A stretch of 64,000 nt of DNA from the NCBI GenBank assembly GCA_964350985.1, contig CAYGLK010000001.1, forward strand, positions 158,636 through 222,635, written 5' to 3'. The first letter of the stretch is position 1. Each line of letters opens with the position of its first letter. A model generated the notes under the pieces. That model ran no database searches. It was not told the origin of the DNA and saw only the letters and a list, made by a program, of their open reading frames with translations. This DNA comes from an uncultured Candidatus Saccharibacteria bacterium. GTDB lineage: Bacteria > Patescibacteriota > Minisyncoccia > Phycocordibacterales > UBA918. A program made the position numbers and the translations under genes. Below are positions 9,981 through 23,289 of this stretch, piece after piece.

Positions 9981-10030
9981 AGAGCAAAAAAGAAACACAA
10001 TAGCCAGAAAGAATGCTTTTCATGTTGGAT

Positions 10031-10112
10031 GCTCCGCTGGGTGAGGGAAGTTCGAACTTTAGTATAAAAAGAAACCGCTCGTGAAGACGCGGTGTCTTAC
10101 GAACGGTTTTGC
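10031..10112 (+). repeat. Family-1 repeat, copy D: GCTCCGCTGGGTGAGGGAAGTTCGAACTTTAGTATAAAAAG + hairpin. Acts as a bidirectional terminator between the convergent genes 9195..9980 (+) and 10120..10389 (-).
   Basis: Motif conserved in copies E and F. Hairpin aaaccg..gaagacgcggtgtcttc..cggtttt is followed by TTTT on the plus strand and preceded by an A-run, which gives a U-tract on the minus strand. Confidence 0.55.
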
Positions 10113-10119
10113 AGACTCT

Positions 10120-10389
10120 TTAGAACATCTGATACGGCACTGCATTTCCTGGAATTCGAGTGAGAATCATTCCGCAGCCATATCGACCTTTAATGGTCGG
10201 CACAACAATGCGAGAACTGATCTGTCTCTTTCCCAGTCCGATGACTTGGTAGCTGGCTGCAGATACTGGGAAAACGGTTGCTATTCCCAGGATTACCAGC
10301 CCTCCTTTTGGAAGTCGTTCTTGCGCAACCGCTCCTGATTGGTACCACTTGCGCCAAAAACGGCGATCAGTTTTTTTGCTCTGGTTCAT
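10120..10389 (-). CDS. hypothetical small protein (89 aa) in a GC-rich segment
   Basis: Track ORF. An overlapping plus-strand ORF of similar size (10081..10338) exists, so the strand assignment is uncertain. Confidence 0.35.
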   Translation of the reverse strand: MNQSKKTDRRFWRKWYQSGAVAQERLPKGGLVILGIATVFPVSAASYQVIGLGKRQISSRIVVPTIKGRYGCGMILTRIPGNAVPYQMF

Positions 10390-10451
10390 GACACATTCTC
10401 CCTTTGGACAAATTTAACAATAGCACAATAAATGTATTATGTCAATATTTG

Positions 10452-10553
10452 TCCCGCTGAGTCAGGGGAAATGACGACAAGTTTTGTATAAAAAACCGCC
10501 GCACCGTGGGGAAGTCAGGACAGTTGTCCTTTCTTCCACTAGGTGTGGCGGCA
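10452..10553 (+). repeat. Family-1 repeat, copy B (degenerate 5' part + TATAAAAAA + long hairpin). A minus-strand terminator for the 10626..11225 gene.
   Basis: gctgagtcaggggaaatgacgacaagttttgtataaaaaaccgccgcacc...gtggggaagtcaggacagttgtcctttcttccactaggtgtggcggc. The hairpin is homologous to copy A with compensatory base changes. Confidence 0.5.
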
Positions 10554-10625
10554 TGTGTCAGGAACTGCCGGACAGCCCCAGATAGAGCATTTTGTCATTA
10601 GCAGCTGCGGTACATCATCTCACAA

Positions 10626-11225
10626 CTAATCCTCGTCGCCGATTTCGGATTTGATGTTGATCGTAATGACGTGCGGGGCAGTCTGCTGTCCTGAAAGGAA
10701 CAAGAGCCAAGAAAGACCGACGAGCTGTTGCTTGGTGTGTTCAACCCCCAGCAAATCAAGAGCAAGCGACAGTTGATCAGGTGAGTAATTAACCTCACCA
10801 TTTCTGATTATCCCTGCGATCGCCGGGAAGAGAGGACCGTTTTTGAAGCCGTCAACATCGCCCTGATTCAAGTGATGCCGCAACTGTTCCTCCCTGGGTA
10901 CAGCAGCGTATTCCGCTGCCGCATCTTGAGCACCACCTCGCTCATGAGTGATCTCTTCACTGTACCAAGGAGGTACGTCTCCGTCGCAGTCGACCAAGAC
11001 ATTGTCTTTATGGCTCCAAATGAATGGATTACATCTCACGTCCGGCGCGGAAATCGGAAGTTCAGTCGATGGAAATGACAAAAAGACTTCACCTTGGTCG
11101 CCGACACGGAGTACTGTGACTTGAAACATCGTTGCTTCGTCTGCACTCGGATCTGGCTTGAAAGGTACAATCAGCAGATCACCTGCTGAAAGTGAGGTGA
11201 ACAACTTTTTTGGGCTCGTTGGCAT
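10626..11225 (-). CDS. hypothetical protein (199 aa), GC-rich relative to its surroundings
   Basis: Track ORF; no family recognised. Confidence 0.5.
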   Translation of the reverse strand: MPTSPKKLFTSLSAGDLLIVPFKPDPSADEATMFQVTVLRVGDQGEVFLSFPSTELPISAPDVRCNPFIWSHKDNVLVDCDGDVPPWYSEEITHERGGAQDAAAEYAAVPREEQLRHHLNQGDVDGFKNGPLFPAIAGIIRNGEVNYSPDQLSLALDLLGVEHTKQQLVGLSWLLFLSGQQTAPHVITINIKSEIGDED

Positions 11226-11344
11226 CAGATTTTCCTCTAGTTGTGGCTGAGATGGCTTTGATTACGTGCACCATAAGGAGCACTTTGTTTTTATACTATA
11301 ATTTATATCTAATGTCAATTTAACATTGTAATGTCTAAACACAT

Positions 11345-11480
11345 CTGTCACTTTCTCCATTGGAGCACAGAAAAATCCCCAAGAGGGGATTTGTTCAATG
11401 CTCCCTCAACTGGACGCATTCAGAACCTCAAACTGGAGGCGAATACAACAAGAATTGGAAATGAGTGGAATTTTAGGACA
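11345..11480 (+). repeat. Family-2 modular repeat, copy H: partial 5' module + type-a hairpin module + GCTCC-N6-TGGACG..TTCAGAAC + tail AAGAATTGGA..GAGTGGAATTTT
   Basis: gtcactttctccattggagcacagaaaaatccccaagaggggatttgttcaatgctcc is identical to the module in copy G. Its tail matches copy I (agaattgga...gagtgggatttt). Confidence 0.55.
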
Positions 11481-11588
11481 GTTTGAAAATGTTCAACTTC
11501 AGAACTCGTAATTGGAGGAAAGCTCAAATGTAATAAAATTCACTGAATTAATTCTGTAATCTATAGTGGCAAATGCTATTATTTAACT

Positions 11589-12278
11589 ATGAAACTAGAG
11601 CAACTATTACCCAAGAAAGAAACAGCGGAAAAACTTTCGGTAGATTTAGAAACAGTTCTGGATGATCTTGAGGGATTGGATGCAGAAGATTTAATAAATG
11701 CACCCCGTGAATATATTCTCAAAGGAAAAATACTAGCTAGACAGCTCAAACAGATTAGAACACTCGGGGTAGAATTTACAGTCTCTGGAGAAAAGGATCG
11801 TTTAGTTTTATCTACAGGTTCAGTCGGTTGTACTGAGCCTGACCCCAGAGCGTATATACAAGCTCTGATAGACGATAATAAAGAGTTCCCATCGGTTACA
11901 GAAAGAATTCAAACATCTCCACTCAGTATGCATTCACACGACTCTGAGATTGGGGTTGTTCCAAGTATTCCAGATATCATTGCCCTGAGAAACGCTGTAA
12001 ATTCTGCAAGTCTACTTTTTACCAGCGAGGGAATACTGTCATACTCTTGGAATAAAGATTTTGATGTGGAGCAAAAGTTCTTGTCTTTTTTAGAGATAAA
12101 ATACCCAGTTGAAAATATTTTTGACGTCGATACGTTTTATGAACTAGACAAACCAAGACAGATAGAACTCCTTTCTGACTTTTACAATAATTTTGACGTA
12201 CTCATCAAAAAAGCGACTTGGGATGAAGAAGAAAAGTGCCAAGCTATATTAGATCAATATTTTAGTCAGAATAGCTAA
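11589..12278 (+). CDS. hypothetical protein (229 aa)
   Basis: Track ORF; no family recognised. Confidence 0.55.
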   Translation: MKLEQLLPKKETAEKLSVDLETVLDDLEGLDAEDLINAPREYILKGKILARQLKQIRTLGVEFTVSGEKDRLVLSTGSVGCTEPDPRAYIQALIDDNKEFPSVTERIQTSPLSMHSHDSEIGVVPSIPDIIALRNAVNSASLLFTSEGILSYSWNKDFDVEQKFLSFLEIKYPVENIFDVDTFYELDKPRQIELLSDFYNNFDVLIKKATWDEEEKCQAILDQYFSQNS

Positions 12279-12305
12279 AGTAACACTTTACAATTCTTTA
12301 CAAAA

Positions 12306-12345
12306 GCTCCGCTGGGTGAGGGATGTTCGAACTTTAGTGTAAAAT
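12306..12345 (+). repeat. Family-1 repeat, copy E (core without the hairpin)
   Basis: gctccgctgggtgagggatgttcgaactttagtgtaaaatt, almost identical to copy D. Confidence 0.55.
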
Positions 12346-12449
12346 TAGAAAGCAATACATGAAGAATTGGGGTTTATTCGCACTTCAGAATCTGTTTGTA
12401 TACAAGCCACACTAGTCTGATATACTTTAATCATAAATAACATTAAATT

Positions 12450-13388
12450 ATGGAAGAATTTTCAAGATCATCTAAAGAAATGAAATCTAATTATGAGAGG
12501 GCTATGGTCAATTATGGTGATGAAGACTTATCAAAAGATGGAACAATGGAGAAGGACCAAGTCTTTCCAACTGCTTTTATCACATCACGTTGTTTTGCGG
12601 AGCAGACTGATATTCCAAATGCCAAAGAGTTATACGCCTCATTCTGCGATCAAATGGGTTTCGTGAAAGGAGAGAATGAACCAGATCAAATAGATACACC
12701 ACATTTTATGGAACTCAGGTATCTGTCTACTGAAAAAGTATTAAAAGAGGCGGTTAAAAATGAAGGAGTTACTCAGGTTGTTGAATTAGCTTCTGGTTTC
12801 ACTCCACACTCAGTAAATTTACTTACTTCAGTAGAGGGAATTAATAATTACATTGAAAATGACTTTGCTGTTAATCTTGATGTGAAAAAGAAAGCCGTAA
12901 ATGATTTTGTAGGAGGTATTCCCGTAGCCTTTGTTCCTGGAAATGCAGTGGAACAGGAAACTTGGGAAAAAATCGAAGCTCAGTTAACAGATGAACCAGT
13001 GGCAATATTTTGTGAGGGTTTAATGATGTATCTCTCTCGCGATCAGCAAATAGAGTTTTTTAATAACATCAAAGAAGTACTTAAGAAAAAGGGTGGTTTC
13101 TTTATGCATGAAGATATTCTTAAATACCATCCAGAACTAAAAGAAAATCCAAGATTTGCCAGGATAACAAACAAATTGAAAGCTATAAGTAGTAATACTG
13201 CTTTAGACGAAGCCTTTACTCAAGAAGGAGTGACTCAATTCTATGAAAGTCTCGGTTTTGTTGTTGACCGTGTTCCAGAAGATGTCCCGTTAAGTATTGA
13301 TAGCTACCCTGAACACACTCGAGAGAACGCAAGAGAATTACAGACAGCTGGCTTTCAGATGTGGAAACTAAGTTTGCCTAAGGAGTAA
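12450..13388 (+). CDS. class I SAM-dependent O-methyltransferase, leucine-carboxyl-methyltransferase (LCM/TcmP)-like
   Basis: VVELASGFTPHS resembles LCM motif I (VVNLGAGLDTR), and PVAIFCEGLMMYLSRDQQIEFFNNIKEVLKKGGFFMHE resembles the LCM (EGLLMYL) region. Confidence 0.5.
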   Translation: MEEFSRSSKEMKSNYERAMVNYGDEDLSKDGTMEKDQVFPTAFITSRCFAEQTDIPNAKELYASFCDQMGFVKGENEPDQIDTPHFMELRYLSTEKVLKEAVKNEGVTQVVELASGFTPHSVNLLTSVEGINNYIENDFAVNLDVKKKAVNDFVGGIPVAFVPGNAVEQETWEKIEAQLTDEPVAIFCEGLMMYLSRDQQIEFFNNIKEVLKKKGGFFMHEDILKYHPELKENPRFARITNKLKAISSNTALDEAFTQEGVTQFYESLGFVVDRVPEDVPLSIDSYPEHTRENARELQTAGFQMWKLSLPKE

Positions 13389-14090
13389 TTCAGCTATTGC
13401 CTCAGGGTTGGAAAACATAGCCTCATGATCTGCATCAATTGTCATTATTTCTGCAGCGTTTGGTAAAAGAGAAATTATTTCATCAAAGGTTTCTTTTTGT
13501 AATGAGATATCATTTTGACACTTTACATAAATAACTGGAACTTTTGTTTGCTGGAAAGAATCAAGTACAACTATCTCCTCGTAGGGTTTAATTGGTTGAG
13601 GTTCAAGTTTAGATAAGAAGTCATTTAATTCATCAGAGTCCGGGCTGCTGTTAAATAAACCTTGTCTTATTTTCTCTATGTTTGGAGGAATTGATTTGTC
13701 AGCACGATTGGACGCAATTTGTCTGTATTTTTCTTGAACTTCGGAAGGAAGGAGTGAGGAAAAGGCTTTATTTTTTAAGATAACCGAAGTGAGAAAAAAC
13801 GCCTTGTTTATCTTTTCTGGTATTTTTTCAATTACTTTAGAAATAGTTATTCCACCTAGGCTATGACTTACTAATACAATATCATTCAATTTATTTGAAT
13901 TTATATAATCTATTACATAGTTTATATAATCATCTATACAAACATCTTCTTTTTTAATTGAGTCATTCAATCCGTTTCCTGGTAAATCCAGAGTATGGCA
14001 AATGAATTTGTCATTTGGTATCAAATTTATTACCTCATTCCAACACCATCCAGCATGATACGCACCGTGGACGAAAAGTATATTTTGCAT
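13368..14090 (-). CDS. alpha/beta-hydrolase, SABP2/methylesterase-like
   Basis: N-terminus ILFVHGAYHAGWCW is the SABP2/MES-family signature. GxSxG nucleophile elbow VSHSLGG. Catalytic His region DADHEAMFSNPE. The 3' end overlaps the 12450..13388 gene convergently by about 20 nt. Confidence 0.75.
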   Translation of the reverse strand: MQNILFVHGAYHAGWCWNEVINLIPNDKFICHTLDLPGNGLNDSIKKEDVCIDDYINYVIDYINSNKLNDIVLVSHSLGGITISKVIEKIPEKINKAFFLTSVILKNKAFSSLLPSEVQEKYRQIASNRADKSIPPNIEKIRQGLFNSSPDSDELNDFLSKLEPQPIKPYEEIVVLDSFQQTKVPVIYVKCQNDISLQKETFDEIISLLPNAAEIMTIDADHEAMFSNPEAIAELLLRQT

Positions 14091-14167
14091 AAATATAATT
14101 ATATCAAAAGTTTTATGTTCTGTTTTAGTAACAAAAAATAACCTTGTTTTGCAAGGTTATTTTTGTT

Positions 14168-14250
14168 GCTCCGTCATGGGATGAAGTTCGAACTTTAATA
14201 TAAAAAGACCGCCCAAAGGAAGTCTTCCCTTAAGCGGTTGATTGTGAGAA
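14168..14250 (+). repeat. Family-1 repeat, copy F: GCTCCGTCATGGGATGAAGTTCGAACTTTAATATAAAAAG + hairpin. A minus-strand terminator for the 40-aa peptide gene.
   Basis: Hairpin accgc..aggaag tc ttccct..gcggt preceded by an A-run on the plus strand, which is a U-tract on the minus strand. Confidence 0.5.
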
Positions 14251-14253
14251 GAG

Positions 14254-14376
14254 CTAGCCATCATCGTCGTCGTCATTCCACAGAAGAGAAAGAGCGACAC
14301 CAATAGCCACTCCGACAGTGATATTGTCCATTGCAACCCCGATGGCTATGCCTACAGCTAATCCTAAGGGATTCAT
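14254..14376 (-). CDS. small hydrophobic glycine-zipper membrane peptide (40 aa) with a poly-Asp C-terminal tail
   Basis: Own translation: MNPLGLAVGIAIGVAMDNITVGVAIGVALSLLWNDDDDDG. A GGAGG Shine-Dalgarno sits 5 nt upstream of the ATG, and a TTGACA-17-TATATT promoter lies about 35-60 nt upstream. The peptide is below the track's 60-aa cutoff. Confidence 0.45.
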   Translation of the reverse strand: MNPLGLAVGIAIGVAMDNITVGVAIGVALSLLWNDDDDDG

Positions 14377-14409
14377 TCCAGACCTCCATAACTTTTCTTG
14401 ACTACTCAA

Positions 14410-14452
14410 AATATATCATATTATTGTCATATTGTCAATTTGCTCCGGCAGT
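14410..14452 (-). promoter_or_regulatory. sigma70-like promoter (TTGACAATA-N-TATATT) for the 40-aa peptide gene, abutting a degenerate tRNA-Asn 3'-end-like segment (GCTCCGGCAGTAAG)
   Basis: Minus-strand reading: TTGACA (14438-14433), 17-nt spacer, TATATT. The same arrangement (tRNA-3'-like GCTCCGGC.GTA.G next to TTGACAATA) recurs at 16143-16203. Confidence 0.4.
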
Positions 14453-14602
14453 AAGCAAAGCTTTCTATCCTACACTCACAAGAACTAAGTAAAAGTGAAC
14501 TTTGACTTAGCTTGTTCGTTTGAATAGTAGGAATTTCTCTTGTTACACAAGCAGTACACCTTTTGGATTTTCTTTTCGTAAACTCAAGAAAATACTCAAA
14601 AG

Positions 14603-14716
14603 CTTTTCGAATCCTAACGAAAGTGACTTATGTCACTTTCTCCGCCGAAGCACAGAAAAATCCCCAAGAGGGGATTTGTTCAATGCTCCGCGTGCTGGAC
14701 GAGTTTCGAACCTTGG
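14603..14716 (+). repeat. Family-2 modular repeat, copy G, full length: TTTCGAATCCTAACGAA + hairpin AAAGTGAC/GTCACTTT + CTCCGCCGAAGCAC + type-a hairpin AAATCCCC/GGGGATTT + GCTCC-N6-TGGACGAG-TTTCGAACC
   Basis: The 5' two-thirds align with copy I with compensatory hairpin changes (AAAGTGAC..GTCACTTT vs AACGTGAC..GTCACGTT). The central hairpin is identical to copy H. Confidence 0.55.
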
Positions 14717-14771
14717 ATTGGTTAAATATTGAAAACGATTTGAGGTATTTTGATATTGCTCTAACGAAATG

Positions 14772-14800
14772 AGACCCTGCGGTGTATTGCAGGGTCTCGT
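14772..14800 (-). terminator. stem-loop terminator candidate downstream of the 14824..15405 gene
   Basis: gagaccctgc-ggtgtattg-cagggtctc is a 10-bp perfect stem right after the gene's stop, followed by a T-rich stretch on the minus strand (atttcgtt). Confidence 0.4.
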
Positions 14801-14823
14801 GTCGGTCTTACCGACGGGGTTAT

Positions 14824-15405
14824 TCAGGCATATGGACGGCGCAGTGGGTTTTGTCCCAACGGAGCACGAAGGTGTTCAGGGACTTCATTACCGAACAGCT
14901 CGCGATACTCCATTGGAGCAAGGCCGTAACGCCGCACAATGTCAGCGAAGACCCGCAGACCTACCTCGCTGTCGATGTGATACGACGTGACGAAAGGCTT
15001 GCCTTCGCTGGAGGGATCATCGACGAACCTGTTGCCTTGAGACTCTAGCAAGTTGACGAGGCTTTCGTCCGTCGGGCGCTCTGAATTGGCATACAAGACA
15101 TGGCCTTGGTCATCAAGACGCGTGATCCACTCTTCGGGGGGCAGGCAACCGCAGTGGCCAGCGACCCGAATGTCGGTTTTGCCAACAGGGTCGGCGTAGA
15201 GTGCCCGTGCGATTTCGAGTGGTACGCGACAGTTGACGACCCAGTAGCACCAGCCACGCTTGAAGGTCATATCGCCTAGCTTGCCGATGACCGAGTAGGG
15301 CACTTCTGTATTACCCCTCTTGATGTCCACGGCGTCGATGTAACTGCGAGCAAGCTCGCGTCGGATATCTTCGTCGCAGGTTGCGACACCAGCCAGGTTC
15401 TTCAT
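14824..15405 (-). CDS. hypothetical protein (193 aa), markedly GC-rich; probably recently acquired
   Basis: Longest ORF in the segment. The plus-strand ORFs 14769..14990 and 14782..15048 overlap it and are judged spurious. Confidence 0.55.
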   Translation of the reverse strand: MKNLAGVATCDEDIRRELARSYIDAVDIKRGNTEVPYSVIGKLGDMTFKRGWCYWVVNCRVPLEIARALYADPVGKTDIRVAGHCGCLPPEEWITRLDDQGHVLYANSERPTDESLVNLLESQGNRFVDDPSSEGKPFVTSYHIDSEVGLRVFADIVRRYGLAPMEYRELFGNEVPEHLRAPLGQNPLRRPYA

Positions 15406-15587
15406 GGTGCAGTCCTCTCTGTGGTGAACGGAAAATCAAACCAAATAATTCACTATTTATAGTGTATTGTCAATAGTGCTCCGCAGGTGGGAATTTCGGT
15501 CACGAGTTACTAAGCTTTTTATTTCACTTAGCTCATAAAAATCTAAGTACTCTCGACCCCGGCTCATTCGCCTACGGCATCATTCCG

Positions 15588-15780
15588 CCTTTCGAATCCT
15601 AACGAACGTGACGTTTAGTCACGTTCTCCGCCGGAGCATATAAAAGCAAAGACCACACTTGCGTGTGGCCTAACTTTTATATGCTCCCTAAGCTGGACGG
15701 GTTCAGAACTCTTGGTGCAGGAATTTAGACGAGCAAATTGGTCACTAATTCAGAAAGAATTGGATCGGAGTGGGATTTTG
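15588..15780 (+). repeat. Family-2 modular repeat, copy I, full length with the type-b hairpin module and a long tail
   Basis: tttcgaatcctaacgaacgtgacgtttagtcacgttctccgccggagcata + taaaagcaaagaccacacttgcgtgtggcctaacttttata + tgctccctaagctggacgggttcagaac + tail agaattggatcggagtgggatttt. Confidence 0.55.
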
Positions 15781-15879
15781 TATTTTTATCAAAGTCAGGT
15801 ACTTCAGAACTATATTGTATAAAAGAAAGAGGCCCGTTGATGTTATCGCAGGGCCCCGTGACGGCAATACCGTCGGGCG

Positions 15880-16101
15880 TCAGAAGCTGATGATCTCGCC
15901 CTGCGGACCCCAAACCATTCCCATGGTCATGGTCATCGTCATGCCATGACTGGTGTGACTGGTCGATGTCAGAGCGGCGGCCGCACCATTGAAGCCTGCT
16001 TCAGTGAGGCGACGACGGATCTCGTCATGAGACCCTCCCTTGCACTTCTTGGCAAGATCGGTCGCTTCGTCCTTGGTGAGTTTGTGAAAGGGCTTATCGG
16101 C
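15880..16101 (-). CDS. small protein (73 aa from MADKPF..). The N-terminus resembles a Rho_N/HeH-like helical DNA/RNA-binding fold, and the C-terminus carries an MTMTMTMGM tract.
   Basis: A GGAGA Shine-Dalgarno sits 6 nt upstream of the ATG at 16101, and a TTGACA-17-TATAGT promoter lies upstream. The track's longer start (16137) falls inside the promoter palindrome. The LTKDEATDLAKK...EIRRRLTEAGF layout is only weakly family-like. Confidence 0.45.
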   Translation of the reverse strand, partial: ADKPFHKLTKDEATDLAKKCKGGSHDEIRRRLTEAGFNGAAAALTSTSHTSHGMTMTMTMGMVWGPQGEIISF

Positions 16102-16131
16102 CATTCGTGTTCTCCGAGTTAATGGGTGAAA

Positions 16132-16171
16132 TGACAATACCTACTATATCATATATAGTAGGTATTGTCAA
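16132..16171 (-). promoter_or_regulatory. 39-bp near-perfect palindrome containing the sigma70-like promoter TTGACA-17-TATAGT for the 15880..16101 gene; a possible operator
   Basis: tgacaatacctactatat-ca-tatatagtaggtattgtca: arms of about 17 bp are perfectly complementary. The -35 and -10 elements read off the minus strand. Confidence 0.45.
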
Positions 16172-16177
16172 TATAAA

Positions 16178-16203
16178 GCTCCGGCGGTAGGATTCGAACC
16201 TAC
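16178..16203 (-). repeat. Perfect 26-nt direct repeat of the tRNA-Asn 3' end (T-arm + acceptor 3' strand), att-site-like
   Basis: gctccggcggtaggattcgaacctac is identical to 16309-16334 inside and abutting the tRNA, 131 bp away, in the same orientation. Confidence 0.8.
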
Positions 16204-16276
16204 TTGGACAAACGAAAAAGGACCTGAAAGTTTATTTTCAAGTCACTTTTGAGTGCAGTTCAAGAAAGCTATGCTT

Positions 16277-16292
16277 ACGACCAACTCGTTAA
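16277..16292 (-). repeat. 16-nt duplicate of the tRNA-Asn anticodon-arm region
   Basis: acgaccaactcgttaa is identical to 16335-16350 within the tRNA gene. Confidence 0.5.
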
Positions 16293-16309
16293 GGGGAATC
16301 ATTTTTGGG

Positions 16310-16381
16310 CTCCGGCGGTAGGATTCGAACCTACGACCAACTCGTTAACAGCGAGCTGCTCTACCGCTGAGCTACGCCGGA
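16310..16381 (-). tRNA. tRNA-Asn (anticodon GTT), 72 nt; CCA not encoded
   Basis: Manual cloverleaf: TCCGGCG-TA-GCTC-AGCGGTA-GAGC-A-GCTCG-CTGTTAA-CGAGT-TGGTC-GTAGG-TTCGAAT-CCTAC-CGCCGGA-G. It has a 7-bp acceptor stem, a D-loop with GG, a TTCGAAT T-loop and anticodon GTT. Confidence 0.88.
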
Positions 16382-16501
16382 GCCCAAAAATTATTCATTA
16401 TTTAAATTTTAACAGCTCACCTTCTTACAGAAGCTGTTCAGGTTGTCGCCATTGTCATGGCTGGCAACCTCTTGCGAAAGCCTACAAGGCTTTCTCACTC
16501 C

Positions 16502-16520
16502 ACCGCTCCGCTACGCCGGA
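16502..16520 (-). repeat. Degenerate partial copy of the tRNA-Asn 5' half (acceptor 5' strand + D-arm), located upstream of the intact gene
   Basis: caccgctccgctacgccgga vs the tRNA's taccgctgagctacgccgga: about 17/20 identical. Confidence 0.45.
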
Positions 16521-16601
16521 AAATGCTCATGTTTAGCTATTCTTTAGCTGAACGTCACCATTGTACAGAAAAGTAATGATTATTCAACTATTACTGTAAT
16601 C

Positions 16602-16640
16602 CACAGGTGAGGGAATCAGTAAAACGTAGTATAATGAAAT
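16602..16640 (+). repeat. Degenerate family-1-like segment carrying a perfect TATAAT about 20 nt upstream of the glutaredoxin-like gene; a probable -10 promoter element
   Basis: cacaggtgagggaatcagtaaaacgtagtataatgaaa vs family-1 cgctgggtgagggaagttcgaactttagtataaaaaga. Confidence 0.35.
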
Positions 16641-16663
16641 TATTAAAAGGTTAAATGTATTAT

Positions 16664-16969
16664 ATGCTTACACTTTACTACAAACCAACTTGCGCATTCT
16701 GCCGTCGAGTTTTAGCGGTCATTGACCGTCTGGAGCTAGAGGCAGAGCTAAAAGATATCAGTGAAGATACAGCACTTGAAGCTGAACTGATTGCTCTTGG
16801 AGGCAAGAAGGCAGTGCCTTACTTGGTAGACGCAGATAAGGGTGTCTCGATGTACGAATCAGATGATATCGTGAACCACCTACAAACTACTTATGGAAAA
16901 GCGACCACCACAGCGACACGACCACGTATGCATATTGGCGATAATGTCTGTGTTTCTTGCGAAGGTTAA
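16664..16969 (+). CDS. glutaredoxin-like thiol-disulfide oxidoreductase
   Basis: YYKPTCAFCRRV carries a CxxC motif near the N-terminus of a thioredoxin-fold-sized protein. The start is taken at MLTLYY (the track ORF begins 9 nt earlier). Confidence 0.6.
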   Translation: MLTLYYKPTCAFCRRVLAVIDRLELEAELKDISEDTALEAELIALGGKKAVPYLVDADKGVSMYESDDIVNHLQTTYGKATTTATRPRMHIGDNVCVSCEG

Positions 16970-16975
16970 TCTTGC

Positions 16976-17221
16976 ATGTATATAAGAGTGGCGGTTTGGC
17001 CCGGATCTAAAAAGGAAGAAGTTAAAAAAACAAAAGAAAACTACTTTGAAATCAGGGTAAAAGAACCAGCAGAGAGGAACCTGGCTAATAAAAGATTAAA
17101 AGAAATACTAGCCCAAGAATTTGAAGTCAGCACAGGCTCTGTACGTTTAGTCTCAGGGCATCAGTCAAGCAGAAAAATATTTTCATTACCAGATGAGGTA
17201 ACCGATAATAAAAAACAATGA
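16976..17221 (+). CDS. DUF167/YggU family protein
   Basis: MYIRVAVWPGSKKEEV...ANKRLKEILAQEFEVSTGSVRLVSGHQSSRKIF matches the UPF0235 pattern. Confidence 0.65.
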   Translation: MYIRVAVWPGSKKEEVKKTKENYFEIRVKEPAERNLANKRLKEILAQEFEVSTGSVRLVSGHQSSRKIFSLPDEVTDNKKQ

Positions 17222-17586
17222 TCTTCAAAAATATAACATTCAAACATACCAATATAGAGACCGATCAAAAACTGGACGCTTTGGTAGAACAAAAATTAGT
17301 CTCACTAGAAAAATATCTAGACCAAGGACATGAAGTAAGGGCCGAAGTAGAGTTTGAAAAAATACCTTCGCATAAAACGGGACTAATCTGTCGTCTGGAA
17401 ATAAATGTTTGGTCAGGAGGAACTTTGTACCGAGCTGAGACAACCGAAGAAACTTTTGAGATGGCGATAGACGTAGTCAGAAATGAATTAGATCAAGAAA
17501 TGCGTCGAGCTCACAAAAAACACCACAGTCTTATCAGAAGAGGAGGACGAAAAATTAAAGAGATGATGCGCTGGGGAGGGAAGTAG
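17218..17586 (+). CDS. hpf: ribosome hibernation promoting factor / RaiA family
   Basis: The N-terminus MIFKNITFKHTNIETDQKLDALVEQKLVSLEKY.. follows the YfiA/HPF pattern. Size 122 aa, with a basic C-tail. Confidence 0.75.
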   Translation: MIFKNITFKHTNIETDQKLDALVEQKLVSLEKYLDQGHEVRAEVEFEKIPSHKTGLICRLEINVWSGGTLYRAETTEETFEMAIDVVRNELDQEMRRAHKKHHSLIRRGGRKIKEMMRWGGK

Positions 17587-17601
17587 AAAAGCTTAATAAA
17601 A

Positions 17602-17640
17602 ACCAGTCTAAGGAAACTCCTTAGACTGGTTTTTATTTTG
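17602..17640 (+). terminator. Rho-independent terminator after hpf
   Basis: ccagtctaagg-aaactc-cttagactgg followed by TTTTTATTTTG. Confidence 0.6.
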
Positions 17641-17687
17641 TCCCCATAACTTTAAGGACGACTTATTTAAAGGGGTATAATTAGTCA

Positions 17688-18350
17688 ATGAAGAAAATCC
17701 TATCTTTTATCACGACACTATCACTCTTAGGTGGTGTTTTTCCAACCTTGGTTGTGCCAGAGATAGTCACGGCGCAAGGTGATGATTATTGTGCCGAGTA
17801 TTATGGTGACTATGTTCCGAGTAGCTCAAACTTTACCGCCCATGGTTTAACTAAGGTAGAAGTAGCTTTCTCGGATATTTGGAGCGTAGAACCAGGTATG
17901 GGCGGTGGTAATACTATGCCAGTACCCGGTCCGTTCTTGCCAGAAACTCAAGGACATTATTTGACTATACCAATTGTCTTTACTGGTGATCAGATAGGGA
18001 ATGGATCAGTTCAGACAAACTTTTCATTTGTAGAATGGCAGCCCCGGCCAAATATAGATTACCCGGTTGTGACCCATTCAATTTCTTACTCAATTAGTCC
18101 ATGTCCTGGAGATTTTCGACCAGTAGTACAAAATTCACCTGATCCATATCTACGTTTTTCTTGTCGTGGTGGATCTCCTACGATTTCTGGTAATTTTTCT
18201 TTAAGTAGCATTGCTTCTTTGGCAGGCTGTCCGACACCTAAAGGAAAAAAGCTTTACTTAAATATTGCTACTTACAATATGTTTTTGTCAGATTTGCCAT
18301 TTGACCAGTACTGTACAAGTACTTGTGGGGTAGCCTTAAGAGTGCAATAG
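17688..18350 (+). CDS. hypothetical secreted protein with a signal peptide
   Basis: MKKILSFITTLSLLGGVFPTLVVPEIVTAQG is a signal-peptide-like N-terminus; there are several Cys residues. Confidence 0.5.
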   Translation: MKKILSFITTLSLLGGVFPTLVVPEIVTAQGDDYCAEYYGDYVPSSSNFTAHGLTKVEVAFSDIWSVEPGMGGGNTMPVPGPFLPETQGHYLTIPIVFTGDQIGNGSVQTNFSFVEWQPRPNIDYPVVTHSISYSISPCPGDFRPVVQNSPDPYLRFSCRGGSPTISGNFSLSSIASLAGCPTPKGKKLYLNIATYNMFLSDLPFDQYCTSTCGVALRVQ

Positions 18351-18367
18351 AATTTTTAATTGGATAT

Positions 18368-19225
18368 TTAAGAGAAATAGACAGAGAAGTCCATTTCTTT
18401 TTTACCTTCGGGAACGATGCTTCCGATAACTAAATGTCCTCGATTATCTATTTCAGCACTTTTGATTTTTATTCTTTTTCCTTCATGAATAAAAAATGTT
18501 TCTGGCCAACCAGCAAAAGCGCGAATCTTGAGTAACATTTGATAGGCGTCTTTACCACTAGGTAAGTTGCGTGGGTCTATTTCAAGTTGACTCATTTCTT
18601 TGGTGATCTTGGTACAAAAAGTTGCTTCTTCGTGGTTCTGTTCAGTTGGGGTAATTTCAGCATTTAAATATTCAGTCAAAGTAACTGAAAGTAGATCACC
18701 ACCAAGTTCAGCTAAAATCTGATCCAAGACTAGTCCATCCATTGGCCATTCAGTCTCCGGAATACGAGCCTTCTCTTGAGTCAAAATTGGTCCGTGATCC
18801 ATTTTTTCATCAAGTAGCATTACTGATACGCCAGTGTTTCTTTCGTCATTTAAAATTGCACTACGAATTGGACTAGCGCCACGAAATTTTGGTAGTAAGG
18901 AAGGATGTACATTCAAGACTCCTTTTTTAGGTAAGTCTAAAAGCCACTTAGGCAAAATCTTGCCATATGCAACTACGATAAAAACATCCCAGTTAGTTTT
19001 ACTTAATTCTGCAGCTACACTTTCGTCCTTTAGAGTTTCTGGCTGAAGCAGTGAGATTGAGTTTTCACGTGCATAGAAAGCAGCGGGTGGGGGAGTAAGG
19101 ATACCTTTCCTTCCTACCTTAGCATCAGGATTACTGATAATAAGATCTGGAATTATATTAGCTAACTTGAGTCTTTTTAAAACAGTGACAGCAATTTCCG
19201 GAGTGCCAAAAAAAGCTATTTTCAT
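18368..19225 (-). CDS. fmt: methionyl-tRNA formyltransferase
   Basis: MKIAFFGTPEIAV... and HPSLLPKFRGASPI are Fmt signatures. It sits immediately downstream of def with a 4-nt overlap. Confidence 0.85.
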   Translation of the reverse strand: MKIAFFGTPEIAVTVLKRLKLANIIPDLIISNPDAKVGRKGILTPPPAAFYARENSISLLQPETLKDESVAAELSKTNWDVFIVVAYGKILPKWLLDLPKKGVLNVHPSLLPKFRGASPIRSAILNDERNTGVSVMLLDEKMDHGPILTQEKARIPETEWPMDGLVLDQILAELGGDLLSVTLTEYLNAEITPTEQNHEEATFCTKITKEMSQLEIDPRNLPSGKDAYQMLLKIRAFAGWPETFFIHEGKRIKIKSAEIDNRGHLVIGSIVPEGKKEMDFSVYFS

Positions 19226-19755
19226 GTAAGTGGAGCTTCGCTTCGATCTTTATCTTTCATGTCTTCTTTAGTCCAAATTTTTTCAGCGCGATCAGTAAAT
19301 AAGATTCCATCCAAGTGATCAGTTTCGTGTTGAATAATTTGAGCTAAAAGCCCACCAGCGCCACGAGAAAATGGTTTTCCATTTTCATCTAGTGCCTCTA
19401 GAGTGACATTTGTAGATCTTTTGACAGTGCCGTAGCGGTCAGGAATTGAAAGACAACCCTCACCGACTATGTGGGTTTTTTTAGAAAACTTAGTAATTTT
19501 TGGATTAACAGCAATGATAGTTGGTAGCCGGTCCTCTTCACCACTTTGGTCTTCGATGATAAACAGACGCTTACTAACTCCAATTTGTGGGGAAGCAATA
19601 GCAACAGCAGTATAGCCGTCTATTTTATAGGTTTTAATAGCTTGCCTCAGGTCTTTAAGGAGTTTTTTTACACTACCGTCAGCAAACTCTGCTGGTGTGA
19701 TTTCCTCAGCAATAGTATGTAAAGCAGGATGGTTTTCTGGTACTAATTTAGCCAT
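19222..19755 (-). CDS. def: peptide deformylase
   Basis: EGCLSIP and QHETDHLDG are the conserved Def motifs. Confidence 0.9.
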   Translation of the reverse strand: MAKLVPENHPALHTIAEEITPAEFADGSVKKLLKDLRQAIKTYKIDGYTAVAIASPQIGVSKRLFIIEDQSGEEDRLPTIIAVNPKITKFSKKTHIVGEGCLSIPDRYGTVKRSTNVTLEALDENGKPFSRGAGGLLAQIIQHETDHLDGILFTDRAEKIWTKEDMKDKDRSEAPLT

Positions 19756-19798
19756 ATTTATGTGTCTTAATTATAGCAAACTAACATAAGGAGTGAAA

Positions 19799-21724
19799 TT
19801 AGACAATTCTGCCGGGGTCAATTTCAATTCGGATATACGGCGGTAATTTTTTTAATTTTGTCATAAAGTCCTCCGCTTCTTTTCCACTACGATTTATTTT
19901 AAAGAGAGCGTGTCTGAGGATTTTATCGTCACTAGAATTAGGGTTGTTGTAGTAACTGGCTGTGTGCGGGCTAGCGATAGTCTCAATAACTTTCTCAGTG
20001 TTAGTGACCACCTCTTTATTTCCGGTCCAGCTGAGTAAGACAAAAGTAACCACTGGAGGGTACTGAAGGGCTTCTCTTAGTTGAATCTCCTCATTATAAA
20101 AAGCTTCTAAGCTACCATGTTTAGCGCTCTCTAAAACGGAGTCTGGTTTGATTCTGGTTTGAACCATCACTTCTTGGTTAGATAACTCGCGGAGTTCTAA
20201 AAGTAGTTTAAAGATATTCTCATCAGCTCGCCAAGTCGGATTTGACCTAGCTGCATCAAGAGAGACTATGGTACTTAGATCAACTCCGTTTAAAGCAAGG
20301 TAGGGAAGACACATCTGCGTTCCCACTAAAATAGAACTACGATTTTCATAAAATTCGGCTATTATTTTTTCAGCCCGTTTACGGGTGGAACCCATAATGT
20401 GATCTAGGAGGAATATCTTACTATTTGGGAATTGAGTAACAGCTTCGTCGTAAACGTGTTGAATACCAATGCCACGTGCTCGCAACCTCCAAGAGCCACA
20501 AGAAGGACAAGTATCAGCAGCGCGAATTTTCTTACCAGAAGTACCAGAAACAAACCAACGCTCCTCCTCACCTGACTTGTTGATTGTTTTAACTAGAGAG
20601 TATGGTGTTTCGGAGTCAGGGCAACGAAAGATGTATCCACAGTCAATACAAGTAACTACCGGAGCGATACCCCTTCTGGCACCATAAATAAAGACACGTC
20701 CCTTACCTTCAAGAATACTATTAACCCGTGCTGTCAGTTCCTTTGAAAATAAGACAAAAGGTTTTTCTGGGGTGGATTTATCTTTTTGTTCAATAATGGT
20801 TAAGGGAGAAGAAAAAGCAATTCTTTTAGTTTCGCTGTTGAAAGTGTTGTAAGTTTCCATTCGCCTGCGGTACTCGTCTTCTGTTCTAGGTAAAACATCA
20901 CCAAGAAGAATACTGCGACCAGTGATGGCAGCGTAAGTAGTGAGGGCGGTACGGTGATCAAAGTAGGGACGTAACTGACTACGGTAGGTTTCGTTGGCTG
21001 ATTTTTCAACTACCACAGATATGAGATCAACTCGATCAAGATAAGCATGAGATGGGGTAGTGATGATAAGACGAGCTAGGGTTGTATCTTCAAAGGCGGC
21101 GTAGGCTTTTTCTTGCTCGTGTTTACTAGCAGAAGGTGAGAAGACCACAACTCTGTCTTCGATACCTTGAGCAAGATGTTTTTTGGCGTATGCGATATGA
21201 GCTGAAGTGGGGACAATAAACATCACTGATCCACGTCTAGCTAAGACACTACGGATATGGCTCCGATATGAAATATAACGATCAGCAATAGCTGCTGTTA
21301 GTAGTTGAGGCACTGTATCCTCGTCATGAACGAGAGAAGAAACAATTGGATACTGATATTGGCCAGTGCGAACGTCAGGTGGAAGTAGTTGATACAAAAT
21401 AGCACCGATTGAGCTAGGATATATTTTTGTCAGTTTTTCAGCAGTTAACTGAATATTTTTTGGGACAACTGACTCTGGTGTTTGTTCTGGTAGTTTACGA
21501 AGTGTAAAAGAAGCTGTTTTAAGTGAACTTTTACTTTCACTAACCGGCTTTACTTCAGTCACAACAGCTCGGTGAGTTTTTCCGCGGATGGGTATGTTGA
21601 GAAAAGTACCTATCTGGTACTCCACCTTACTGTAATACGACAGCGAGTCGATTTTTGTGCCGCGAATTAGGGGAATTACCTGAATAACAAACATGTGAAG
21701 GTCATTGTAACAGACTTCCGCCAA
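19799..21724 (-). CDS. priA: primosomal protein N' (PriA)-like, with non-canonical helicase motifs
   Basis: The N-terminal 3'-DNA-binding-domain-like region and the Cys4 zinc region (CIDCGY..CPDSE...CPSCGSW) are typical of PriA. The expected Walker A (GxxGxGKT) and DExH are not seen: the aligned segments read ...RGSVMFIVPTSAHIAYAKK... and VVVEKSANETY. The gene order is the conserved priA-def-fmt. Confidence 0.65.
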   Translation of the reverse strand: MAEVCYNDLHMFVIQVIPLIRGTKIDSLSYYSKVEYQIGTFLNIPIRGKTHRAVVTEVKPVSESKSSLKTASFTLRKLPEQTPESVVPKNIQLTAEKLTKIYPSSIGAILYQLLPPDVRTGQYQYPIVSSLVHDEDTVPQLLTAAIADRYISYRSHIRSVLARRGSVMFIVPTSAHIAYAKKHLAQGIEDRVVVFSPSASKHEQEKAYAAFEDTTLARLIITTPSHAYLDRVDLISVVVEKSANETYRSQLRPYFDHRTALTTYAAITGRSILLGDVLPRTEDEYRRRMETYNTFNSETKRIAFSSPLTIIEQKDKSTPEKPFVLFSKELTARVNSILEGKGRVFIYGARRGIAPVVTCIDCGYIFRCPDSETPYSLVKTINKSGEEERWFVSGTSGKKIRAADTCPSCGSWRLRARGIGIQHVYDEAVTQFPNSKIFLLDHIMGSTRKRAEKIIAEFYENRSSILVGTQMCLPYLALNGVDLSTIVSLDAARSNPTWRADENIFKLLLELRELSNQEVMVQTRIKPDSVLESAKHGSLEAFYNEEIQLREALQYPPVVTFVLLSWTGNKEVVTNTEKVIETIASPHTASYYNNPNSSDDKILRHALFKINRSGKEAEDFMTKLKKLPPYIRIEIDPGRIV

Positions 21725-21760
21725 GCGGTCAGATTTTAGCTTTTTATTCTAGAATAGAGA

Positions 21761-23260
21761 CTAAACTTCGTCCAAGTAAGACAGTTTGGCGCCGATAGAT
21801 GATAGACGTTCAACTAAGTTCTCGTATCCGCGTTTGATGCTGTAGATGTTGCGTAAGACACTATGTCCTTCAGCTCCAAGCATGGCTACTAGAAGAATAG
21901 TGGCTGGCCGTAGGGCAGGTGGGCAGATCAACTCTGTAGACTTTAGTTTTGTTGGTCCAGTTATATAGATACGGTGCGGGTCAGCCAAAGCGGTGTCAGC
22001 TCCAAGTTTTTCAAGTTCGGTAAAGTAGATAGCTCTTTTTTCATACATCCAATCATGAATTAGAGTTTGTCCTTCAGCTTGTGTGGCGATAGCTGCAAAG
22101 AAAGGAAGGTTGTCTGCATTTAGTCCTGGGTAGGGTCTAGAGTGAATTTTTTCTGGAGAAGCAGTGAGCTTGCTGTTTTTTATTTTAAGGTCCACTAGTT
22201 TAGTTACACCGTTGTGTGAGAAGTAAACTTTTGACTTTGTGTATTCGAGTCCCATTTTTTCTAACACTAGTAATTCCAGTTCCAGAAACTCTATCGGGCA
22301 GCGGGTGATAGTTAAGTTTGATTTGGTGACAATGGCTGCTGCAATAAAAAACATACTATCGGTTGGGTCTTCAGCTAAGTTGTATTCTATCGGGGTGTTG
22401 ATTTCAGCTATACCGGTAACTGTCAGTGTAGTAGTACCAATTCCTTCGATTTTTACTCCTAGTTTTTGTAAGAAAATACAAATCTCTTGCACCATGTAGT
22501 TGGCTGAGGCGTATTTGATTATGGTTGTGGTTGGTGTTTTCGCTGCGGCAAAAAGAGCATTTTCAGTTACTGTGTCACCAGACTCATAAAGAATGATCTC
22601 ACTAGGAGTTGCTGGTACTTTAGTAACGTTATAAGAGGTTGCAGTGGTTTCAATATTGACGCCAAAGTTCTCCAGGGCGTAGAAATGAGGACGTACTGTT
22701 CGACTGCCAAGTTTGCAGCCACCAGTTTGAGGAAGACTGAATTTATCCATTAAGTGGATTAGTGGTCCGATAAACATCACAATACTTCGAGTTTTTTTGG
22801 CAGCTTCGATATCAATTTTCTTTAGGTCGATTTTCTTTGGTGGAGTAATCTTGAGATTGTTTCCTTGCCATTCTATTTTTACACCAATACTTTCAAGTAC
22901 TTCGATAATACGATGAACTTCTTCAATCCGAGGCATGTGATGCAAGGTGGTGGAGCTTCTGTTTAGAAGGCTGGCACAAAGGAGTCCAACAGCACCGTTT
23001 TTTGAAGTGTTTGTTTCGATGGTTCCAGAGAGTTTTTTACCACCATCAATTTGAATATTATAGCCACCAGGTGAGAGGCTGATAATGTTTTGTCCCAGAG
23101 CCTGACTGACCTTGGATAAGGTGTCAGTACTGATGTTTTGTTTACCTGACTCTAGTCTGGCGATAGCGCTTTGAGTAGTTTTCATTTTTTTGGCTAAAGC
23201 TGCTTGGGTGATACCCTTACTTTCTCTAACCTTAGTAATACGTTGTCCGATATTTTTCAT
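21761..23260 (-). CDS. murA: UDP-N-acetylglucosamine 1-carboxyvinyltransferase (MurA) with an N-terminal XRE-type helix-turn-helix domain
   Basis: The HTH reads MKNIGQRITKVRESKGITQAALAKKMKTTQSAIARLESGKQNISTDTLSKVSQALG. MurA motifs are LSGTIETNTSKNGAVGLLCASLL and the active-site region LPQTGGCKLGSRTVRPH. The track ORF starts 87 nt further upstream; MKNIGQ at 23260 is the more likely start. Confidence 0.8.
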   Translation of the reverse strand: MKNIGQRITKVRESKGITQAALAKKMKTTQSAIARLESGKQNISTDTLSKVSQALGQNIISLSPGGYNIQIDGGKKLSGTIETNTSKNGAVGLLCASLLNRSSTTLHHMPRIEEVHRIIEVLESIGVKIEWQGNNLKITPPKKIDLKKIDIEAAKKTRSIVMFIGPLIHLMDKFSLPQTGGCKLGSRTVRPHFYALENFGVNIETTATSYNVTKVPATPSEIILYESGDTVTENALFAAAKTPTTTIIKYASANYMVQEICIFLQKLGVKIEGIGTTTLTVTGIAEINTPIEYNLAEDPTDSMFFIAAAIVTKSNLTITRCPIEFLELELLVLEKMGLEYTKSKVYFSHNGVTKLVDLKIKNSKLTASPEKIHSRPYPGLNADNLPFFAAIATQAEGQTLIHDWMYEKRAIYFTELEKLGADTALADPHRIYITGPTKLKSTELICPPALRPATILLVAMLGAEGHSVLRNIYSIKRGYENLVERLSSIGAKLSYLDEV

Positions 23261-23273
23261 AATAGAGTTGATT

Positions 23274-23289
23274 ATAGCATATATGCTAT
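23274..23289. promoter_or_regulatory. Perfect 16-bp palindrome ATAGCATATATGCTAT 14 nt upstream of the HTH-MurA start, in the divergent murA/mreB region; a candidate operator
   Basis: Seen directly; it is its own reverse complement. Confidence 0.35.

Follow-up and report, generated by a model that had tools for sequence, protein, structure and literature searches.

The 3' end of a single essential gene, rlmH, is where cassettes of the staphylococcal cassette chromosome (SCC) and psi-SCC are stacked by the serine recombinases CcrAB, and some of these cassettes lack a recombinase and depend on one provided in trans. The ssrA islands of Dehalococcoides, which have the large serine recombinase (LSR) DsiB, are arranged in tandem, include recombinase-less members and carry a conserved non-target motif before each repeat (PMC3146451), and a minority of the tycheposons of Prochlorococcus also use LSRs, most of these elements having tyrosine recombinases and replication genes (10.1101/2020.12.28.424599). 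Here we report on a 64,000-nt stretch of DNA from an uncultured Candidatus Saccharibacteria bacterium (contig CAYGLK010000001.1 of assembly GCA_964350985.1; hereafter the window), in which a tRNA-Asn gene is flanked by fragments of itself and followed, at its 3' end, by a row of small accessory cassettes. Genomes of the Candidate Phyla Radiation (CPR)/Patescibacteria are tiny and, to our knowledge, their acquisition of accessory genes is not well described. On balance, our analysis favours the view that a hypervariable island, growing by stacking, has this tRNA-Asn as its chromosomal docking site (attB), with serine recombinases probably docking the cassettes. Given the ssrA islands and the stacking of tycheposons, the hotspot itself is of a known kind; new here are the clade and the target, the tiny promoter-bearing cassettes without recombinase, the B- versus P-type geometry at every boundary and a family of structured tRNA-like elements (TLEs).

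Cassettes stacked behind tRNA-Asn

The only tRNA gene of the window is an intact tRNA-Asn(GTT), as identified by both ARAGORN and Rfam. Its 5' side is occupied by glutaredoxin-like, DUF167, HPF, fmt, def and priA-like genes, which are syntenic with tRNA-Asn in dozens of loci, and an fmt-based scan placed the window in the Patescibacteria/Paceibacteria (best fmt identity 63%). Its 3' side, between about 4.3 and 16.3 kb (some 12 kb), consists of stacked accessory cassettes with one or two genes each, whose products include a beta-lactamase fold, an EEP nuclease, an LCM methyltransferase, an alpha/beta hydrolase and several unknowns. There the GC content swings between 0.34 and 0.51, the highest value being that of 15001-16000, while most of the window lies at 0.34-0.45. 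Homologues in some 88 related loci (numbered with the prefix L) were found for none of the 14 proteins tested from 3 to 16104, and tblastx and tblastn searches of the island genes against these loci revealed no common cargo, the non-coding right ends being the only parts in common.

A recombinase gene is present at this tRNA in relatives. An LSR gene was found by tblastn at attL, next to tRNA-Asn, in 12 related loci (L002, L008, L010, L016, L024, L029, L030, L039, L058, L066, L082 and L084), convergent with the tRNA gene, running into its 3' end and coding for 524-553 aa; Pfam recognised the Resolvase, Recombinase and Zn_ribbon_recom domains in L002 and L082. The cargo of these LSR elements comprises HaeII-type restriction-modification and GmrSD genes. 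Three metagenome contigs, L082, L083 and L084, are near-identical upstream of and within the tRNA and differ from the very base that follows ...GGGGAGC: L082 continues with one LSR element, L084 with a different one and L083 with a terminator and a 135-nt element. Here a precise junction is polymorphic at the level of strains, and tRNA-Asn is an integration hotspot in this clade. As side observations, the motif AGGTTCGA(A/G)C occurs twice, approximately 120 nt apart and at about +70 and +190 after the tRNA end, in the LSR 3' coding region of L082 (8155-9816), L024 and L039; in L082 the two copies lie in different LSR reading frames, so this is a motif of the DNA and not of the peptide. The LSR open reading frames (ORFs) of L002 and L082 also run through the antisense tRNA (tails ...GRIRTYD... 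and ...GQDSNLRP...).

When all junctions are aligned on GGAGC, two families of sites (X_A and X_B) emerge at the far ends of elements and cassettes, with the consensus GTTCGAAC-...-CCAGCGGAGC for X_A and GTTCTGAAC-NN-GTCCA-N7-GGAGC for X_B. The X_B pattern gave 21 matches, two of them probably by chance, in 13 loci and the window (0-3 in shuffles) and the X_A pattern gave 5 against none in shuffles; wherever the tRNA of a locus was located, every X site follows it downstream and shares its orientation. In the attB-type left half-site of tRNA-Asn, which extends from the T-loop to the 3' end, GTTCGAATC is followed by 13 nt up to the end of GGAGC, whereas in the X sites GTTCnnAAC is followed by 18 nt, that is, it lies 5 bp further out; an RTCC motif common to X_A and X_B keeps the distance from GGAGC that it has in the tRNA (12 nt to the end of GGAGC for the tRNA and X_B). 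On the right-hand side of GGAGC the sequence follows N4-7-[GT]GA[CT] in LSR elements and N3-7-TTGAC in cassettes, where it doubles as a -35 box. About 130 nt upstream of X_B are conserved and common to the LSR elements of L002 and L030 and the recombinase-less cassettes of the window. In LSR attachment sites the motif of the recombinase domain is fixed, and that of the zinc-ribbon domain lies 5 bp nearer the centre in attB than in attP (PMC3783163). The geometry described above would fit this rule with the tRNA as B half-site, X as P half-site and a crossover inside GGAGC.

Accordingly worded as a mechanism, an LSR would cut inside GGAGC and join to the tRNA end a circular unit made up of a terminator (with or without a TLE), a promoter, the cargo and a right end of about 130 nt with X. 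The unit would bring its own terminator, so that the tRNA|terminator junction is presumably regenerated, and newer units would push older ones outward. Units with a left-end terminator of their own occur in several loci. In L064, X_B|terminator junctions come one after another behind the tRNA|terminator junction, and the terminators of at least two are recognisably related; the terminator found twice behind X_B in the window has a near-identical counterpart immediately behind the tRNA of L012; L013 reads tRNA|terminator-TLE1|cassette-X_A|terminator'-TLE2, TLE2 being a decayed copy; and L070 contains a clean single-gene unit between tRNA|TTGAC and X_B|terminator. The units of the window may have lost a recombinase or never had one and, if mobile at all, would be moved in trans, and the 3' end of the TLE might also offer a second, tRNA-like docking sequence. 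Our data point to one tRNA gene as an entry port shared across many Paceibacteria genera, served by LSRs and occupied by mini-cassettes with beta-lactamase-fold, nuclease, methyltransferase, hydrolase and restriction-modification genes. If the half-site reading is right, these loci hold natural attB/attP pairs for diverse uncharacterised serine integrases, which would be of interest for genome engineering.

A tRNA-like element at cassette left ends

The TLE first came to notice in L004, L011, L013, L014, L019, L027, L031 and L034, where a conserved block lies behind the terminator of the tRNA. It is a tRNA-Asn-derived element of about 135 nt, found behind the terminator at the left end of many cassettes and, in many genomes, behind the tRNA itself; there is no promoter between terminator and TLE. 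Read in the tRNA sense, it begins with GC and the acceptor 5' strand, a hairpin (P2), GU, the 5' strand of the T-stem and UUCGAAA, continues with a long hairpin (P4), UACWG, a P5 hairpin with the loop UGUAA and GAGAAAC, and ends with the 3' strands of the T-stem and the acceptor, followed by GC. RNAalifold on a MAFFT alignment yielded 37 pairs, 30 of them with compensatory changes. Across 23 copies 92.3% of the cells are paired, as compared with 64% in shuffles and 39-46% in slid controls, 33 of the 37 pairs change on both sides, and G.U pairs outnumber A.C (28 vs 9), which identifies the folded strand as the tRNA sense strand. Folds of single sequences gave the same architecture, including the closing helix P1 (z = -8.6, -6.4 and -4.7). 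As modelled, the TLE is a well-supported structured element and, since the tRNA sense strand is the one that folds, probably a tRNA-like RNA. In Rfam scans of the window and eight TLE-bearing loci only tRNA matches reached threshold, and a permissive scan of the L014 TLE region returned only weak, unrelated matches. Viral contigs scanned with a TLE pattern, which recovers only five known copies, gave 0 matches.

The last 15-18 nt of the TLE usually equal the end of the host's own tRNA-Asn. The exception is TLE1 of L031, with a foreign-type 3' end that pairs with its own 5' end, which argues that the TLE moves between genomes and that P1 is intramolecular. The same copy led us to discard the idea that the TLE 5' end pairs with the tRNA 3' end to extend the terminator hairpin, because it matches its own 3' end instead. 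Hairpin ends of the HUH/IS200 type and bridge-RNA-like guides of the IS110 type were considered because the element holds both a copy and the complement of the tRNA end; they were rejected, as no such transposase was found in the scanned ORFs and the segments pair as P1. As a separate observation, the P5 loop (14541-14553 in the window; also L004 and L027) is almost always UGUAA closed by C-G or A-U and is reminiscent of the anticodon loops with U33-G34-U35 in Asn, Tyr, His and Asp tRNAs, which might hint at recognition by an enzyme or toxin that binds anticodon loops.

It is tempting to go further and to see in the TLE a new family of tRNA-Asn-mimicking structured RNA on recombinase-less cassettes, part of an integron-like CPR system with serine-recombinase half-sites and a recombinase in trans, a proposal that we put forward tentatively and with more doubt than conviction. 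Were it true, each unit would bring a tRNA terminator and a portable tRNA-like docking end, perhaps a punctuation signal for RNase P/Z, and promoter-bearing single-gene arrays would grow at and behind one tRNA gene. In any case, the link of the TLE to mobile cassettes raises the question of why cassettes carry a tRNA mimic.

tRNA-derived pieces and rival explanations

The fragments that flank tRNA-Asn had been described beforehand in a sequence-only reading as a perfect 26-nt copy of the 3' end lying 131 bp downstream in the same orientation, a 16-nt copy of the anticodon-arm region at 16277-16292 and a degenerate copy of the 5' half at 16502-16520. The first was confirmed as an exact direct repeat with a start-to-start distance of 131 (matched in 0 of 100 shuffles), the second exists but is one nucleotide longer than claimed, and the third extends further than claimed, to 23 nt, with a degree of identity reached by no shuffle. 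None of the three is expected by chance. The Logan assembly of run ERR3534985 (locus L001) is 100% identical to the window over 15658-26322, its contig ending at 15658 inside an array repeat; therefore all three pieces are reproduced and are not specific to one assembler.

The 17-nt copy, whose start lies 56 bp from that of its original, contains four nucleotides of the anticodon loop, the 3' strand of the anticodon stem, the variable loop and the first three nucleotides of the T stem. In tRNA coordinates it shares 3 nt (TAC) with the 26-nt copy, so the two form one colinear 40-nt copy of the tRNA 3' half: this pseudo 3' half corresponds to the last 40 nt up to GGAGC, starting from the anticodon loop, and is interrupted by 72 nt. 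On the minus strand the segment 16305-16178 thus reads as a 13-nt spacer, the 17-nt piece, the 72-nt insert, the 26-nt piece, 6 nt and the promoter of cassette 1, the last elements making up an attL-like junction GGAGC|N6-TTGACA. A terminator-like hairpin of the intrinsic type within the insert (16221-16244) is the first terminator after the tRNA. The insert has an inverted partner: 16204-16278 and 14451-14523 are inverted copies of about 72 nt (alignment score 38, null 13.8 +/- 2.2; no other partner in the window scores higher), both adjoin tRNA-derived pieces, the distal one lying beside an acceptor-3' piece, and the pair suggests nesting or inversion. The two halves could also correspond to a split long hairpin or to the trace of an inversion.

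According to model R1 the segment 16305-16178 is not a canonical TLE. It takes the position held by terminator and TLE in other units, and its junction type (GGAGC|N3-7-TTGACA) recurs at unit heads at 15478 and 14442 of the window and in L013, L031 and L034; we therefore infer that the 17-nt, 72-nt and 26-nt parts are the tRNA-derived left-end module of the first unit. As to the upstream piece, the tRNA promoter lies within a motif, GTTGAATA...TTTTCTGTACAAT, that is also found ahead of tRNA-Asn in L005, L007, L010, L011, L013, L082-L084 and L086, and it is followed by a leader element in which the degenerate copy of tRNA positions 1-23 precedes P2-, P4- and P5-like hairpins and an anticodon-loop-like G-CTGTTAA. 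Homologues occur in L014, L031 and L067, the one in L031 repeating 24 nt of the tRNA 5' end exactly, which argues against a random scar; as judged from its sequence, the piece appears to be the start of a conserved structured leader element related to the TLE, which would be transcribed in the tRNA leader.

These results divide the earlier interpretation of the fragments as scars of repeated integration and excision at an attB overlapping the tRNA. Integration at the tRNA holds, in that LSR islands abut its 3' end in 12 related loci; the comparison of relatives that had been proposed as a check revealed near-identical strains (L082/L083/L084) with different segments after ...GGAGC, and the 3' side of the window is a cassette stack with att-like junctions. 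Two parts call for amendment. One is excision, as no recombinase was detected in the window and nothing showed excision; the other is the view of the fragments themselves as scars: the downstream ones are better read as a module derived from the tRNA 3' half at the left end of the first cassette, and the supposed 5' half begins a structured leader element recurring in three other loci.

Some further observations concern the surroundings of the gene. Complementary flanks (16296-16317 with 16375-16396) lengthen the acceptor stem of the tRNA by about 15 bp. The real tRNA sits between a pseudo 5' half ending in ...CTGTTAA and a pseudo 3' half starting with TTAACGAG. Window 16293-16411 looks as though an older tRNA-like gene had received, in its anticodon loop, an insert of 118 nt with TTAA overlapping. 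A 95-aa ORF on the plus strand (16249-16536) is an artefact of the stop-free antisense tRNA strand (...GFEPTTNS...). Upstream of the tRNA, L014 (11930-11975) has a partial tRNA-Asn copy, GC-TCCGGTG-TA plus a hairpin, and L027 (5400-5470) a miniature pseudo-tRNA with D arm and anticodon loop. A group I intron (RF00028) interrupts tRNA-Asn in L049 (12759-13028), L067 (11808-12051) and, on the minus strand, L051 (18961-19253), with 88, 80 and 65 bits, and by eye L012 has the same appearance at about 4480-4730; in L067 and L051 the intron lies between anticodon positions 35 and 36, and ARAGORN misses these genes. A link between the fragments and such introns was rejected because the intron site 35/36 does not coincide with fragment ends.

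Several points weigh against docking and stacking by LSRs. A crossover inside GGAGC alone would not duplicate 26 nt, and it leaves the perfect 26+17-nt copy 131 bp from the tRNA unexplained; perfect blocks of identity are rather what tyrosine integrases or gene conversion typically leave, recent origin and gene conversion both being possibilities for the identity of these copies. The segment 16178-16305 is not recognised by model R1 (5.9 bits) and the fold of 16170-16310 is no better than that of shuffles (z = -1.3). Neither an LSR nor a remnant of one was found in the whole window by tblastn and a relaxed remnant search, a recombinase domain was present in 0 of the 18 ORFs tested between 4.5 and 18.4 kb, and no circular or empty-site form of this genome was observed in the assemblies. 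The X-site patterns were counted in the same loci from which they were derived, the right half-sites B' and P' are loosely defined, the alignment behind the TLE pair counts (A5) was fitted to the model, and TLEs are either each unit's own or a pre-existing scaffold.

The fragments could alternatively be functional parts of structured RNAs co-transcribed with tRNA-Asn, that is, leader and trailer domains kept by selection and not products of recombination. The upstream element, with its stable hairpins, its recurrence in L014, L031 and L067 and its place between a conserved promoter and the tRNA, agrees with this, as do the strong covariation of the TLE on the tRNA sense strand and the fact that tRNA-proximal TLEs are intact and displaced ones decayed (98 vs 52 bits by model R1 in L013). 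We nonetheless consider it unlikely as a full account, because 16178-16305 carries no structural signal, a terminator stands ahead of the 26-mer, and TLEs lie between unrelated cassettes and are mobile between genomes, as the foreign-type 3' end of L031 TLE1 attests. It is, moreover, compatible with the stacking model.

Island integration at tRNA and tmRNA genes is usually the work of tyrosine integrases, as stated in the Islander publication (PMC4383910). In the present case integrations at the T arm and the anticodon loop would have left the 26- and 17-nt copies as displaced originals after decay or deletion of the elements. Both identity blocks are perfect, and they break at the T arm and at the anticodon loop, the classical tyrosine-integrase sublocations in tRNA genes. 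Measured between starts, the exact copies lie 131 bp and 56 bp away from the originals, and they enclose no element. Against this scenario, the supposed elements between the repeats would measure only 13-105 nt; no tyrosine recombinase domain was found among the scanned ORFs next to the tRNA nor, in a weak test, among the 25 most frequent of 87 Pfam families in 75 downstream ORFs of relatives, and the recombinases found at tRNA-Asn in relatives are serine recombinases. We give this scenario a small chance.

Chance duplication that is not site-specific, through slippage, unequal crossing-over or microhomology joining around a highly transcribed tRNA gene, appears quite improbable to us: the TAC overlap of the two downstream pieces and the TTAA overlap of the upstream and downstream pseudo-halves would suit microhomology joins, but many genera repeat the architecture of a tRNA-like module ending in GGAGC, a cassette promoter and P-type end sites, and the strain differences begin exactly at GGAGC. 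Finally, collapsed or mis-joined reads, named in the sequence-only reading as what would undo it, are hardly credible as a source of the pieces, for although both assemblies come from one sample and Logan contigs break in array repeats (at 15658 and at both ends of a 986-nt contig), the independent assembly of the same run is identical across 15658-16660 and homologous arrangements occur in unrelated metagenome-assembled genomes (MAGs).

Features of the array and comparison with known systems

Positions of the tRNA, its derived pieces and the parts of the cassette array in the window, listed from the tRNA promoter outward
Feature	Position	Strand	Basis or remark
tRNA-Asn promoter TTGAAT-16-TACAAT	16560-16587	-	promoter scan
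Upstream structured element, tRNA leader, 110 nt	16411-16520	-	model R1 35 bits at 16415-16506; fold z = -3.6
Upstream degenerate copy of tRNA positions 1-23	16498-16520	-	vs 16359-16381, 20/23 nt identical
tRNA-Asn(GTT), anchor	16306-16382	-	ARAGORN; Rfam tRNA 73 bits; site table
17-nt exact tRNA copy, first part of pseudo 3' half	16276-16292	-	= 16332-16348
72-nt segment splitting pseudo 3' half	16204-16275	-	terminator scan; inverted partner 14451-14523
26-nt exact copy of tRNA T arm + acceptor 3' strand + GC; B-type site	16178-16203	-	= 16309-16334
18+18-nt perfect palindrome; cassette-1 promoter TTGACA-17-TATAGT on - strand	16132-16171	.	inverted repeat; promoter scan 11/12
Cassette 1 gene, 74 aa, Met/Thr/His-rich	15880-16104	-	exact protein found in same sample only
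Cassette-1 right end, ~130 nt, conserved, ending in X_B	15683-15815	-	homologous ends in L002, L006, L030, L064
X_B, P-type half-site GTTCTGAAC-CC-GTCCAG-N7-GGAGC	15683-15709	-	cassette-1 right end
Cassette 2 left end: terminator 15650-15671, TLE 15478-15637 ending ...CCTGCGGAGC	15478-15671	-	R1 54 bits; terminator scan
Cassette 2: promoter 15445-15473 and 193-aa gene of unknown function	14824-15473	-	GC-rich stretch
Cassette 2: terminator 14771-14798 and right end with X_B 14685-14711	14685-14798	-	terminator scan, site search
Cassette 3 left end: hairpin ~14656-14679, best TLE 14518-14651	14442-14679	-	R1 99.5 bits
Cassette 3 left end, continued: 72-nt inverted partner; acceptor-3'-like TGCCGGAGC	14451-14523; 14442-14450	-	
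Cassette 3: promoter 14410-14438 and 51-aa hydrophobic ORF	14254-14438	-	promoter scan
Degenerate X_A 14168-14193, then (- strand) terminator-like hairpin 14134-14164	14134-14193	-	repeat scan
X_A, P-type half-site GTTCGAAC-ATCCCTCACCCAGC-GGAGC	12306-12332	-	homologous sites in L013, L031
X_B 11400-11426, terminator and truncated TLE 5' part	11330-11426	-	
X_A, P-type half-site	10031-10057	-	
Degenerate X_B 9135-9160 and terminator	9096-9160	-	85% identical to 15644-15708
Truncated X_A-like motif without GGAGC	8055-8075	-	most distal recognisable site of island

Beyond the third cassette, the successive sites enclose a terminator and two convergent genes (X_A 14168 to X_A 12306), one plus-strand gene (to X_B 11400), a terminator, the truncated TLE and two genes (to X_A 10031), again one plus-strand gene (to X_B 9135), and a terminator with two genes (to the X_A-like motif at 8055). 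At least three cassettes of the array have promoters with 10-11/12 matches. A terminator near-identical to that of the cassette-2 left end stands directly after tRNA-Asn in L012. The palindrome at the head of cassette 1 holds a weaker mirror promoter on the plus strand (ATGACA-17-TATAGT) and might act as a bidirectional promoter or serve the 74-aa gene as an operator; in L013 and L031 the TLE is followed by a palindromic promoter of similar kind, TTGACATAGCACAC...GTGTGCTATTGT. The 74-aa protein gave no confident family match, only a weak one to DUF3012, and it can be speculated that its C-terminal TSHTSHGMTMTMTMGM stretch binds metal. The exact match of the 193-aa protein is confined to the same sample, on a 986-nt contig broken at both ends. 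Seven MAG contigs end at or just after tRNA-Asn and the Logan contigs of this sample break in array repeats, a pattern typical of variable, repeated DNA. At the start of the window, an ORF of more than 1420 aa on the minus strand (3-4265) runs off the edge and has no homologue in related loci.

SCC and psi-SCC, to which the Dehalococcoides study (PMC3146451) also refers, share with the present island the stacking at a gene 3' end and recombinase-less members, whereas the SCC target is protein-coding, its cassettes are much larger and there is no tRNA mimic. With integrons the locus has in common arrays of mostly single genes, structured repeats whose fold is conserved above their sequence and one fixed start site. 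It differs from them in that several cassettes have their own promoter and terminator and in a junction geometry that fits serine, not tyrosine, recombinases. An integron/attC reading proper was rejected, since no IntI was found among the 18 scanned ORFs next to the array (4.5-18.4 kb), the cassettes carry promoters of their own, and the sites resemble a tRNA and finish with GGAGC; attC R/L boxes with a GTTRRRY core were not seen in the repeats by eye. The TLE itself recalls the tRNA-like domain of tmRNA and YrlA in its acceptor-like closing helix, T-stem, UUCGAA T-loop motif and tRNA derivation. In contrast to them, it matches no Rfam family at threshold, lacks an anticodon arm, has a large two-hairpin insertion in the T-loop and is linked to mobile cassettes.

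Tycheposons resemble the present island in their position beside tRNA genes, in the partial tRNAs flanking elements, and in new arrivals that push older elements outward and leave degenerate remnants and extra partial tRNAs scattered; the structured tRNA-like element and the P-type geometry found here are described for none of them. The likeness to the Dehalococcoides ssrA islands goes further. In both systems a serine recombinase of about 540 aa lies on the reverse strand directly at attL (here, in relatives of the window), a tRNA-like gene is targeted from its T-loop to its 3' end, copies of this 3' end delimit several islands in tandem, a conserved non-target motif stands just upstream of each repeat, and some islands have no integration module, these being regarded in Dehalococcoides as cis-mobilizable. 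A tRNA-Gly-like locus of 76 bp is known from the ssrA islands as well, but it lies inside a gene, some 4.4 kb from attL (PMC3146451), and differs from the TLE. The island described here departs from that system in having tRNA-Asn and not tmRNA as target, in its tiny units of 0.5-2 kb with one or two genes and no recombinase found in the window, in boundaries that are P-type half-sites and not exact 20-bp repeats, and in the 135-nt folded tRNA-like element that many of its units carry.

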